Source of the DNA: Fistulifera solaris
Taxonomy: Eukaryota
Assembly (NCBI GenBank): GCA_030295235.1
Contig: AP026151.1
Span: 806,001 to 870,000 of the forward strand
DNA: 64,000 nucleotides
Direction: 5' to 3'
A program made the translations under genes and the position numbers. The notes under the pieces were generated by a model. It ran no database searches. It saw only the letters and a list, made by a program, of their open reading frames with translations, and had not been told where the DNA came from. Of this stretch, positions 12,655-16,731 are shown piece after piece (the first letter of the stretch is position 1; the number at the start of each line of letters is the position of its first letter).

Positions 12655-12877
12655 AGATTTTCTGGAAAAGCGAAAATACCACACACCCAAACCCACATTT
12701 TCTGGGAACGTGATAAGCCACACTCCCACATTTTCTGGGAACGTGAAAAACCACACCCCCACATTTTCTGGAAACGTGAAAAACCACACCCACATTTTCT
12801 GCGAGAGTGAAAAAACCACTCGCCCACATTTTCTGGACAGGTGAAAAAAGCACACCCACATTTTCTGCGAGAGTGGA
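12655..12877. repeat. Minisatellite, about 7 units of 31-34 bp (CCCACATTTTCTGGGAACGTGAAAAACCACA)
   Basis: Direct tandem units with no unique spacers, between divergently transcribed genes. Confidence 0.9.
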
Positions 12878-12982
12878 CTAGTGAAAATATTTTCTGGGAT
12901 GATGCGATTTCGATTATTCGATTATGAATTCAAATAATTGAACTTTTCTTATTTACAATAGCAATCGATTCATTCAACTCAA

Positions 12983-13384
12983 ATGAGCTCAAATACGACC
13001 ACAATGAAGAAGCCGATGCTGTATTTGTATCGCTCTCTTTTACGCGCTCATCAAAAATGTTTACCGACGCAAATGAAGCAATTGGGAGATGCCTACGTCA
13101 AATCGGAGTTCAAATTGCATTTACAGAAGTCGGTTAAACCGGAACAGATGCAAGCTTTCTTATCCGAATGGCAGAAGTATTTAAATCAAATAGAAACAAC
13201 CGCCCGGGCCGTCGAACAACAAGTTGTGACAGAAGGATCGCCCCAACAGCACGGCAGTAGTAAAACTACGAAGCCAAAATTGTTTCGATTCGGAGCCGAT
13301 TTACCATCCGACGTGCCTTTGACCGATGAACAGAAATTTCAGTTGGAGAAACTGAAAGAAGAAGCGTCGTCTTTCAAGGGTTAA
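12983..13384 (+). CDS. SDHAF3: Succinate dehydrogenase assembly factor 3 (ACN9/Sdh7, LYR-motif protein)
   Basis: LYRSLLRAH..LP...KQLGDAYVKSEFKLH..FLSEWQKY..G..L....LTDEQKFQLEKL. Confidence 0.85.
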   Translation: MSSNTTTMKKPMLYLYRSLLRAHQKCLPTQMKQLGDAYVKSEFKLHLQKSVKPEQMQAFLSEWQKYLNQIETTARAVEQQVVTEGSPQQHGSSKTTKPKLFRFGADLPSDVPLTDEQKFQLEKLKEEASSFKG

Positions 13385-13970
13385 GTCCACAGAGAGCTGG
13401 CATCGGAAGAGATTGTATAAATTGACCATCTTCTATGTGAACAAAGATTTTTTAGAGCTTCACGATCACTCACTTGAGCCCATCTTGTCTTATTTACGCG
13501 CTCAAACAACTCAGCGGTTGTGATTTATTTCTCGTAGTTAAAGGTGATAGTAGTCTCCCCTTGTAAGTTCGCAAGAAAGTCTCGCTGAACTATGAATTGA
13601 TGCGACCTGCACTTTTTTGACTGTGCTCTCTGTAGATTCTACGTCGGATGATATCTGCGTAAGCGTTTATCAAACATAAACTACTAAAATTCAATCATCA
13701 CTATATCATCACTACTACTATGTTGTTATTCCTAAACTTCTCCACAGCAACATTTTCGTGATAACATTTCCATGACACATCTTCCCTTCCCTATCGCATG
13801 CATTACCATGAGCAGGTTCAAACGGTCGACACAAAGCCACATCCAAAACAGACTTTGATTACTCTCAGCATCCTTTCACATCAAGCTCCCGCGGAAAGAG
13901 TGTCATTTCATATTACCAATGTTACAAGAAGTATTCTTTCTTCAAACAAATAAAAAGACTGTCAGTTGAC

Positions 13971-14810
13971 TTAGGCCACCGCATTGCCTCCTTCTCCGAC
14001 AAAGACGGGCTTGCCGGTGCGCTCACGGTGCACCAAGAAGAAGGAGAAGAGGCAAAAGACAAAGGCGAGCGAGCCAATCACACCCAACGTGATGGCGAGA
14101 ATCTTGTTGGTATCCTTCTCCTTCTTCAACTCATCCTCGGGGTTGTTCGCCTGGTAACGTGCGGCACACGAAAAGAAGTCTCCGTCACCACAAAAGAGAT
14201 CCGTCTTGCACGCATCAAACCACGAGTCGCAAAAGCTCTTCTTGATGGGCATCTTGTGCATCTGCCACGTGTTGAAGTCTTCCAAATGCGACTGACTATC
14301 GTTGTACTTGCGAAATAGACCAGCCGACGGCTCGCACTCGTAGAAACACGCTTCATAAACAAAGAAGCGCTCACACGCGGGTGTCATCGGGCCGCAACGA
14401 TCCCAGTGATACTCTTCACCGTACGATTCCTTCAACTTCTCCATACTGGCAACTGTTGAACTGTTGCAGCACGAGCGCTGCTTCCAGGGCTGACATTCCT
14501 TCATGCCGTCGTCTTCAGGAGTCGGCTCGTCCTTGTGAAAGTACTGCAAACCGCATTCTTCGACGGGCTGCTGACCAAAGATATCCAACGTCACTTGATC
14601 GTTCGGATTCTTATCCGTATCAAAGAACCACATGGTGTAGCCGGGTTCCGTGTCATCGACGACGAGGAAACTGTCGGAAAACATCTTCTGGCAGAGCTCG
14701 GTTCCGCTGGCGTAGATTTCGGGGAAGGGTCGGCAGGTTTCTTCCCAAGCCATAATGGTAGGCAGGGCCATTGCGGCGGCGTAAGCGGAGTACTTGATAG
14801 AGAACTTCAT
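13971..14810 (-). CDS. Folate receptor/riboflavin-binding family protein, type I membrane, apparently circularly permuted
   Basis: Signal peptide; HKDEPTPED..ECQPWKQRSCC, WDRCGPMTPACERFF..EACFYECEP, CDSWFDACK; C-terminal TM helix. Confidence 0.85.
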   Translation of the reverse strand: MKFSIKYSAYAAAMALPTIMAWEETCRPFPEIYASGTELCQKMFSDSFLVVDDTEPGYTMWFFDTDKNPNDQVTLDIFGQQPVEECGLQYFHKDEPTPEDDGMKECQPWKQRSCCNSSTVASMEKLKESYGEEYHWDRCGPMTPACERFFVYEACFYECEPSAGLFRKYNDSQSHLEDFNTWQMHKMPIKKSFCDSWFDACKTDLFCGDGDFFSCAARYQANNPEDELKKEKDTNKILAITLGVIGSLAFVFCLFSFFLVHRERTGKPVFVGEGGNAVA

Positions 14811-15995
14811 GGTCTTGTAAAAGTTACTTTCAAGAAAAAATGAAGGCACTTTTGGATCCAAAAGATCTTTTAGTAAGACGAAAAGTCGGAACCGCCGAAA
14901 TACAGTAATGAGGACGAAAGGAATGGATGGACGAGATCGGTTATGTGACAACAAAGGATCGGAAGGAATTTCGATCGATCGTTGCAAAAGATCGCACGCC
15001 GTTCTTTCCAAACTGAGCGAGACACAGCGGCGGAGAGTTCTCGACGTAATTGATTGCCGAGTATGGCACAGTGTGTACTAACATGAAAACCTATGCGTCA
15101 CAACATCCTTGACTCTATTGCAATAAAGACTTTATCGCAAAAAGAGCTGTTTCACCAAATTAGGAGTCCGTCCTCGCCAATTTCCACCGTTTCGATGGCC
15201 CGGGCTGCGAACATTGCCTTTCTACTGATGTTCATTTAGAGAGAAATTAGTTATTATGTTCTGAACGCTTGCGGATTGTTGTCTTTTGTGGTCACTATAG
15301 AATCGGAGTGTTGTTCGTATTTCACCACGACGTTTTGGAGCCAATTTACTGCCTCATCCACTTTTGTTTTGCAAGTTATTAAGCTATTGACTTTCGGATT
15401 ACAAAACCATGTTAATCGGCAGCATCTACAATGCACCATCGTTTTGTTATGTCGACTTAAGCTGCGGATAGCATTTACTATGGACCAAAGTGAAGACCAC
15501 TTTTCGCCACGACTGCATTTCAGTCACGAGGAAATAAGATGGTTCAGAACCAAACGGGCTGACGTTAAGATCAGGCAGACGGACGCCGCACCTCCGCACC
15601 ACAAAATTTTGTTTTCTCACAGTAGGGAACGCAATAAGTTTGTTCTGTACTTCCAAGCCACCGCAATTATTCCGAGGCATAACAAAGTTAGAGTCATTGA
15701 AAAGCATAAAGAATTTCTTGGATATTCCCAACTTCCCGATGAGTTAGTCCCTATCGTTCTCTGATGTACACTTTGTGCTATAGGACACTTTCGGCTTCAA
15801 GACCAGGAAAATGAAAATGACTGGTCATTTTTGCCTTCCGACATCTTATCCGCCGCCGCCGCGAGGAGAAGGACAAAAAGACCTCGTCCTCTCTCTCCGT
15901 CTGCTGTTCATTTGCATTGAACTCCTTAGCAAACATAAAGAGTAAAAGGCAGACCTGCTGCTCGAAAAGCAATCGTTTCATTATTCTATAATATC

Positions 15996-16536
15996 ATGTC
16001 AGAACTAAGCTACAGCACCACCAGCAGCGTAATTGAATCTTGGGAGAGACTCAAGCGCATCAAAAATTACCAAGAAGTTGCTGGTGTCACTGTTTTCAAA
16101 GGTACGTAAAAAAATTACAAAATGATGCGTCCGGTTGCAGGCACTAACATTTCTTATTTCACAGACTCTTCGAGAAATGCCCCCAAGCGCGTGTTTTATT
16201 CGGCTTTCCTATTGATATCGACACCAATTCATCCGAGCTTTTGCAATCGAAACGATTCTTGACACACGCTGCGCACATGATGGATATGATGGACGCTGCT
16301 CTGAGCATGTTTTTGGGCCCCGACATGGATATGCTACACGAAATCATTGACGAGCTCGCCGACAAACACAGACGCTACGGCGTCACCGCTCCCATGTTTC
16401 CGGTTCTGGGCGAAGGCTTTCTTCTGGCACTGGAAACGCATCTCGGTGAATCTTTTTCGACAATAAAATGAAGGAGGCCTGGAAAGAAACCTATTCTCTT
16501 CTTTCTTGCGAAATGATCAATGCAATGTCAAAATAG
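15996..16536 (+). CDS. Single-domain globin (M-family, neuroglobin-like)
   Basis: VIESWE; LFEKCPQARVLF; E7 His in FLTHA; F8 His in LADKHRRYGV; AWKETY; intron ~16102-16164; frameshift at the T-run near 16455. Confidence 0.85.
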
Positions 16537-16731
16537 AGTCTCTTGTTGCGTTCTTAATTAATCCTCACTCCACCTTGAAGTGATAGCCACCATATTTTGA
16601 TAAAGGACATGGATTGATTAATCGATGTGACTGATGCCTGGATCAGTCACCGGGGCATCTTTCAATAAGACAACTAAAAATATTGACATAAACAAAGTTT
16701 AGTAATTAAGATATTTGGAATCCAAACGAGA

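Follow-up and report, generated by a model that had tools for sequence, protein, structure and literature searches.

Folate receptors (FOLRs) are GPI-anchored, and chicken riboflavin-binding protein (RfBP; 6hce) is secreted. Both have the canonical order, in which an N-terminal core (here block A) is followed by a C-terminal block (block B), and the latter protein binds riboflavin; the family can change its vitamin. In human FOLR1, according to PMC9055165, the pterin is stacked between Y85 and W171 and bonded by D81, R103, R106, H135, and S174, and the folate tail is gripped by W102, K136, W138, and W140.

In Micromonas, Algal Thiamine Sensitive 1 (ATS1) combines the folate-receptor domain PF03024 with a TPP riboswitch, and it was reported to rise 80-fold without thiamine in thiamine-auxotrophic species lacking TH1 and THIM (McRose et al., 2014; PMC4260697). 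Starvation induction has been shown for ATS1. The closest described system is the diatom FOLR of Llavero-Pasquina et al. (2022; PMC9544697), who called ATS1 and FOLR homologous and proposed, as a hypothesis, thiamine transport by receptor-mediated endocytosis. The protein described below (GAX20339.1/FisN_9Hh048) is the FOLR query of that study, letter for letter; its sequence is given in supplement S3c and its aptamer in Table S1b. The gene, the aptamer, and the thiamine-uptake hypothesis are consequently already known (PMC9544697). The range reported there comprised diatoms, prasinophytes, and Rhizaria, and the wider range and the pocket changes presented below were not found in the available portions of that paper. 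Its main text contains none of the words "permut," "Branchiostoma," or "amphioxus," and "transmembrane" in a reference only; the main text of PMC4260697 likewise has no "permut." We found no description of the permutation in print, in a search outside of which most subscription papers lay, and the superfamily survey PMC3537238 (ref. 51 of PMC4256011) may contain one. Neither the dinoflagellate 5′ aptamers nor the amphioxus and choanoflagellate members were found in print, and the supplement of PMC4260697 may list a dinoflagellate ATS1 aptamer, because that paper reports riboswitches from a Karenia transcriptome. With that qualification, what appears to be added here is the permutation, the analysis of the pocket, the 5′ aptamers of dinoflagellates, and the members from choanoflagellates and amphioxus.

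Organization of the FOLR Locus of Fistulifera solaris

The window analyzed here is a stretch of 64,000 nt, and positions are counted from its first nucleotide. On its minus strand, which carries all of the features that follow, a single-exon ORF at 13971..14810 encodes a 279-aa protein without internal stops, annotated as FOLR. The protein begins with a probable, weakly hydrophobic signal peptide (aa 1-21; 14748..14810), followed by block B (aa 24-74; 14589..14741), which is the FOLR C-terminal block in an N-terminal position. Its residues include C26, C40, F44, and S47, and its FOLR counterparts include C153, C167, W171, S174, MWF, and NPN. A linker that bridges the former C- and N-termini (aa 75-83; 14562..14588; helix 69-78 in the model) leads into block A (aa 84-215; 14166..14561), the counterpart of the FOLR N-terminal core (C15-C130 plus a shortened loop), with 12 of the 14 ectodomain cysteines. 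A predicted helical stalk (aa 216-236; 14103..14165), a transmembrane (TM) helix at about aa 237-260 (14031..14102; Kyte-Doolittle value 2.6 for the 19-residue window from aa 237; model helix 224-264), and a 19-aa cytosolic tail complete the protein. The juxtamembrane/cytosolic motif RERTGKPVF (E-x-x-G-x-P-x-F; aa 262-270; 14001..14027) is conserved in homologues. In addition, a TPP riboswitch aptamer (Rfam RF00059) that the initial annotation had overlooked lies in the 3′ UTR, 68 nt past the stop codon (13770..13902).

The signal peptide is the weakest of these elements. With a hydrophobicity of 1.7 against a family median of 2.4, it lies close to the family's lowest 5%, values of at least 1.8 were found in 256 of 285 permuted homologues that start with Met, and SignalP 4.1 found no signal peptide in the F. 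solaris FOLRs according to the part of PMC9544697 that deals with them. This weakness counts against a surface thiamine receptor. At the other end, the helix and tail agree with the earlier proposal that a TM helix replaces the GPI anchor. By hydropathy, 246 of 278 permuted proteins of at least 240 aa have a TM helix with a tail of at least 10 aa, and 10 have a tailless hydrophobic end. The motif E-x-x-G-x-P-x-F occurred in 203 of the 246 proteins with TM helix and tail and in 0 of 29 canonical or tandem proteins, and E263, G266, P268, and F270 were at least 90% conserved in 119 aligned proteins; an alignment picked by the tail motif was left out, since its invariants would be circular. No Tyr motif was seen in the tails of the permuted proteins, and FxxL occurred in only 92 of 203 (the window protein has FVGE), a further point against the receptor reading. 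A query made of the TM helix and tail gave six matches in the F. solaris genome, all of them paralogues and no other protein, and a profile of the tail matched generic TM helices in the PDB.

Near the receptor gene, a Complex1_LYR-like gene on the plus strand (12980-13384), which we take to be SDHAF3-like, is convergent with it. Between this gene and a divergent low-complexity gene, 5.4 copies of a 33-nt repeat occupy 12692-12867; loose contig ends suggest that the genome has a comparable stretch at another place. A globin gene with an intron (Pfam Globin, E 2e-10) was found at 16000-16540 on the plus strand.

The C-Terminal Block of the Folate Receptor Precedes Its Core

The window protein is a circular permutation of the FOLR domain within one ORF, with the order B-A where FOLR has A-B. 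Against Pfam Folate_rec (PF03024) it scored 120.5 bits (gathering score 29.8; E 8.6e-35) in two stretches, the better of which aligned residues 86-209 with model positions 2-115 of 172. A phmmer search of the PDB likewise aligned residues 86-208 with 15-131 of FOLR1 (4lrh; E 9.6e-20), and residues 25-74 with 152-204, the latter weakly from the single sequence (i-E 1.3); a profile of 119 homologues lifted the match of the N-terminal block to i-E 4.3e-5. When a profile of block B alone was built from 44 sequences, its matches at E < 0.002 were to the C-terminal parts of RfBP, JUNO, and FOLR1/2 alone. Of 14 rows, the 10 best all came from these proteins, with E values from 2.4e-7 to 1.8e-3, and the next stood at 0.038. 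The best PDB match was RfBP 154-182 (E 2.4e-7), and FOLR1/2 matched at 153-203 (E 1.6e-3). The N-terminal block thus aligns to the FOLR C-terminus.

The AlphaFold2 model of the window protein had a pLDDT of 88. In sequential alignment, its residues 79-222 superposed on FOLR1 8-142 (Z 9.0, rmsd 2.9, 133 aligned); the human receptors FOLR1/FOLR2 (4lrh, 4kmz) and JUNO share this core fold at Z 9.0-9.2, rmsd 2.7-2.9, and 133-135 aligned residues. Across FOLR1/2, JUNO, and RfBP the range was Z 8.3-9.2, and the next family, NPC1, reached Z 4.0. ESM Atlas matches were to PF03024 clusters only (under 0.9). Block B had a pLDDT of 97-98 in the whole-protein model and 73 when its 51 residues were folded alone, and the isolated block gave no Foldseek or VIA-wide match, which is uninformative at that size. 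Because the structure aligners are sequential, the position of block B in three dimensions is inferred.

The initial annotation had described this permutation in a single uninterrupted ORF and quoted its motifs. The motifs are present, the block matches are inverted, and B came before A in 121 of 121 first-search proteins (the query and the best 120 of 325), as it did in 79 of 79 metagenome loci (from the best 80 of 144 matches). It had also considered that the gene might be the remnant of a tandem two-domain gene. The whole window contains a single A and a single B, which share a frame, with no second core or C-block, and the leader directly precedes B in homologues (median 24 aa among the 285 Met-starting permuted proteins), so that this possibility fell away. 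The homoeologue of the gene is 94% identical. Unbroken cover of 13785-14903 comes from one contig of a run that we guess to be RNA (a single study), and this contig represents a near-identical allele; in runs X2 and X3, whose RNA status is likewise a guess, cover ends near 14900-14940.

Cysteines co-vary across the A/B junction. Among 215 dereplicated sequences, C40 in B and C194 in A were both missing in 44 and discordant in six, with paired replacements that include I/A and A/W; when mapped on the tree, independent pairs agreed in 5.4 of 6 cases (median p 0.03). These two positions correspond to FOLR1 C167 and C117, which by our own numbering form the C9-C11 pair of the pattern in the consulted part of PMC4256011. 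Ten of the 12 cysteines of that pattern are present, and the absent two (C113 and C187) make up one pair, C8-C12, again by our numbering; C187 is opposite a gap. C207 and C215, which flank the shortened loop, are also a pair that is lost together. The four plus-strand paralogues in F. solaris have lost C207/C215 too.

With human FOLR the window protein has in common 14 of 16 cysteines, the Y85/W171 sandwich positions, and an acid at D81. In contrast to human FOLR, it is ordered B-A rather than A-B, lacks C113, C187, R103, R106, and the W134-W140 loop, and has a TM helix and a cytosolic tail where FOLR has a GPI signal. By score and fold it is a PF03024 member; by residues, order, and anchor it is not a folate receptor.

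The Ligand Pocket Is Altered

At the positions that contact folate in FOLR1, the window protein has E153 (D81), Y157 (Y85), F44 (W171), and S47 (S174). N180, W182, and Q183 replace R103, E105, and R106, there is no clear counterpart of H135, and the H135-W140 loop is shortened to seven residues between C207 and C215. The aromatic sandwich is retained across 300 permuted proteins (Y157 in 286; W in 241 or F in 53 at position 44, together 294). E153 was found in 286 of the 300, N180 in 255, and W182 in 266; the R106 position is Q or E in 258, the S174 position is Ala in 193, and Arg was absent from the five commonest residues at 180 or 183. Position 179 (W102) is variable. The initial annotation had read the change of Asp to Glu as a hint of another ligand. 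D81 does align to E153, and a changed ligand is supported; the substitution by itself is undiagnostic, because Glu also occurs there in 8 of 25 classical-order domains. Without the two arginines and the glutamate site, the pocket would suit a smaller cationic ligand such as thiamine.

TPP Aptamers Accompany the Permuted Receptor Genes

The window aptamer scored 44.4 bits against RF00059 (E 1.1e-6), under the gathering score of 54.3. It carries the CUGAGA, P2, P4/P5, and GCG motifs, its minimum free energy fold is unremarkable (z -1.6), and it is covered by contigs of runs guessed to be RNA. The low score and the plain fold weigh against the thiamine reading. There are six copies of the gene in the F. 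solaris genome, all permuted and each with a 3′ aptamer (42-58 bits), two of which are above the gathering score. The genome has 12 TPP matches, six at the receptor copies and six behind NMT1 genes.

A TPP match (E ≤ 0.05) was detected at 55 of 79 related metagenome loci, always on the sense strand (55/55) and at or above the gathering score in 28; after clustering at 70% identity, 34 of 50 clusters had one. Grouped by nearest named protein, aptamers occurred at 16 of 22 diatom loci, all 3′, and at 31 of 32 dinoflagellate loci, all 5′, the exception having 38 nt of leader. They were found at 4 of 6 Pseudopedinella-like loci (5′), 1 of 9 haptophyte loci (3′), and 3 of 10 unassigned loci. None was detected at 24 of the 79 loci, some of them long-flanked (8 of 9 haptophyte-like loci), which speaks against a thiamine reading. 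In a set of 27 hand-picked, related aptamers with the structure taken from Rfam, the P2 and P5 stems had 99% of cells paired and 28 compensatory changes, a number as high in 0 of 500 shuffles. The 31 dinoflagellate-like transcripts (among L028-L070; e.g., L043:33-129 and L033:22-118) carry their aptamers at the extreme 5′ end, several directly behind a spliced-leader remnant, and show compensatory changes in P2 and P5; the first 16 nt of L043 belong to the spliced leader.

In P. tricornutum, TPP-aptamer genes showed no response to thiamine and THIC switching was negative, according to the relevant section of PMC9544697. Because those genes did not respond, the diatom aptamer is treated here as an association and not as regulation.

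Some further observations concern the F. solaris copies. Three tandem NMT1/THI5-like genes per homoeologue (L093-L099; C7:971-975 kb and C8:872-876 kb) each have a 3′ TPP aptamer and lack a signal peptide, as already recorded in PMC9544697. The receptor paralogues L003, L004, and L005 are convergent with adjacent M12B/M43-like metalloprotease genes. Two of the aptamers of these paralogues are given to the protease in Table S1b of PMC9544697, yet they lie on the FOLR strand. Copies L005 (C26:781635-782416) and L006 (C25:882087-882784) have frame changes near the C- and N-terminus, respectively, and the former may be an assembly error because the database protein matching L005 is intact.

Thiamine Genes and FOLR Presence

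The F. solaris genome gave no matches to THIC or to TMP-TENI (TMP synthase), four to thiamine pyrophosphokinase (TPK), and eight to the SSF family, a family-level assignment that covers SSSP or otherwise. Table S3e of PMC9544697 shows F. solaris and Nitzschia Nitz4 without THIC, TH1, and SSSP, and marks TH1 as absent from F. solaris, Nitz4, and N. putrida. Using this table by eye for the 19 genomes above the BUSCO threshold, we found FOLR in 3 of 3 diatom genomes without TH1 as against 2 of 16 with it (Fisher p 0.01; 0.05 after collapsing relatives). The presence of FOLR and of SSSP in the same table showed no anti-correlation (p 0.40), which counts against a thiamine reading. Where TH1 is missing, the precursors cannot be joined by known enzymes, and therefore intact thiamine is indicated.

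Distribution and Origin of the Permuted Order

Named permuted members were found in diatoms (Fistulifera, Nitzschia, Thalassiosira, Cylindrotheca), dinoflagellates (Prorocentrum, Karlodinium), haptophytes (Phaeocystis, Pleurochrysis, Chrysochromulina), a pelagophyte, Pseudopedinella, Diplonema, two choanoflagellates, and three Branchiostoma species, a range that is a minimum since most matches are nameless. Identity to the amphioxus protein is 50% across 272 residues, the tail motif among them, and this protein is encoded on contigs of 1.6-44 Mb. An algal surface vitamin receptor had been proposed for this locus; a surface vitamin receptor is consistent with the sequence, and "algal" proved too narrow in view of the choanoflagellates, the diplonemid, and amphioxus. 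Among 25 candidate viral contigs, none was confirmed.

Of 147 further representatives, 89 were B-A, 18 were A-B, nine began A-B-A (tandem), and 31 were partial. The tandems came from the profile search only; a search of longer proteins by words gave one match and no tandem. In quick trees of 70 of the 354 domains, in which deep forks are unsettled, a classical FOLR-like group was set apart from a group (SH-aLRT 99) that holds all permuted proteins, an algal canonical-order set, and the tandems. One permuted clade was not rejected by the AU test (p 0.75; constrained tree 22 log units higher), so that a single origin of the permuted order is allowed. The order B-A is probably derived, because FOLR, JUNO, and RfBP are all A-B, and a duplication to A-B-A-B followed by loss of the ends would be the simplest route to it.

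The canonical-order algal sister group (P0214, P0226, and Pyramimonas P0201; tandems P0162 and P0187) has the same pocket (E in 27 of 29, N in 24, W in 28), and C113 in none. Unlike the permuted proteins, its members are ordered A-B and have no tail motif; in an Atlas search, P0214 superposed on FOLR1 over 212 residues, as against 140 for the window protein. Because the whole group shares E153, N180, W182, and the loss of C113, the pocket would have changed before or with the permutation. ATS1 may belong to this sister group. The sole named prasinophyte protein among the matches, Pyramimonas P0201, has the canonical order, which counts against extending the ATS1 induction to the permuted proteins, and the homologues listed include no named match from Micromonas. 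Locus L085, tried as Micromonas ATS1, was rejected as haptophyte-like by its nearest named protein.

Several unusual architectures were also seen. P0173 and P0211 have the canonical order and fall among permuted proteins in the quick trees, a possible reversion with weak support. The Branchiostoma proteins P0123, P0149, and P0270 are secreted and have at least four tandem canonical-order folate-receptor domains with His-rich spacers, and P0243 (772 aa) has a canonical-order domain behind a long repeat region, between sushi-like Cys repeats.

Discussion

Taken as a whole, the sequence evidence makes the window protein a candidate cell-surface receptor for intact thiamine (or thiamine phosphate), which is the reading we favor with some, though by no means full, confidence. 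In such a receptor, block B would pack on block A as in FOLR through the disulfides C26-C139 and C40-C194, so that fold and pocket are kept, and the permutation would let the C-terminus leave from block A into the stalk and TM helix. Thiamine may stack its aminopyrimidine between Y157 and F44, a position that W occupies in most members, with E153 holding the ring, while the conserved N180 and W182 would stand in for the arginines that read the pterin of folate. The loaded receptor might then be internalized through its tail motif, or thiamine might be handed to a membrane carrier, and TPK1 would make TPP from the thiamine delivered. The permuted order would most likely have a single origin, a tandem duplication followed by loss of the ends, within a clade whose pocket was already of this kind.

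The alternative that survives best, which we nevertheless regard as unlikely, is that the protein serves salvage by binding a precursor or degradation product of thiamine (HMP, AmMP, FAMP, or a thiazole). TPP aptamers mark precursor genes too, the other six in F. solaris being held by NMT1/ThiY-like genes; a pocket without the second half of the folate site suits a small ring; and, in the experiments of PMC4260697 considered here, induction of ATS1 was even higher in thiamine-free medium with precursors. Set against these points are the failure of Micromonas RCC299 to grow on the precursors tested in those experiments, the lack of any TMP-synthase match in F. solaris, and the marking of TH1 as absent in F. 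solaris, Nitz4, and N. putrida in the table discussed above.

It is less probable again that the protein binds thiamine as a sensor or accessory subunit, acting through its E-x-x-G-x-P-x-F tail and not as an uptake receptor. "Transport or sensing" was also raised in the passage of PMC9544697 that discusses FOLR, and conservation of the motif from diatoms to amphioxus, with none in the 29 canonical-order relatives, is unusual. The tail is merely 19 aa long, however, and starvation induction together with presence in auxotrophs without SSSP fits acquisition.

A receptor for folate, a pterin, or a flavin, with the aptamer incidental or reflecting B-vitamin co-regulation, appears quite improbable. 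The retained aromatic sandwich, the acid at D81, and the closeness of block B to RfBP are what this explanation would predict, and the solved homologues with ligand all bind folate/antifolate or riboflavin. The pocket, however, has no counterpart of R103 and R106 (N180 and Q183), the loop with H135, K136, W138, and W140 is reduced to seven residues, and Ala replaces S174 in most permuted proteins. Nor does this explanation readily account for a TPP aptamer that is kept on the 5′ side of the gene in some lineages and on the 3′ side in others. The folate/flavin/pterin list of the initial annotation was not borne out, because the TPP aptamer and the gene content point to thiamine. Finally, that B-A is an artefact, the remnant of a tandem gene missing its upstream exon or a misassembly, is scarcely credible. 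Tandem A-B-A-B proteins do exist, but the order recurs in every first-search protein and metagenome locus, the leader directly precedes B, the window has no further block, the homoeologue is 94% identical, and cysteines co-vary across the junction.

Returning to the thiamine receptor, we tentatively entertain, at somewhat less than even confidence, the broader view that it is an ancient eukaryotic one: a permuted type I branch in which the folate/riboflavin receptor fold would have gained a third B vitamin. It may then be the main B1 route of diatoms without TH1 and SSSP and of dinoflagellates (with their 5′-UTR TPP aptamers), and choanoflagellates and amphioxus may still have it, at 50% identity and with the tail motif retained.

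CRISPR tools for F. solaris are reported in PMC13276009. Auxotrophy for B1 is common among bloom-forming algae. Neither F. solaris nor Nitzschia Nitz4 has SSSP, the sole proven diatom uptake gene, and the permuted FOLR family is the obvious candidate to take its place. Little transcriptional regulation is known in dinoflagellates, and riboswitch control in this group could be approached through the 31 dinoflagellate-like transcripts that carry TPP aptamers at the 5′ end. For the family, whole-protein Pfam naming conceals the permutation under "folate receptor," and a natural circular permutation of a seven-disulfide extracellular domain, from stramenopiles to a chordate, is uncommon.
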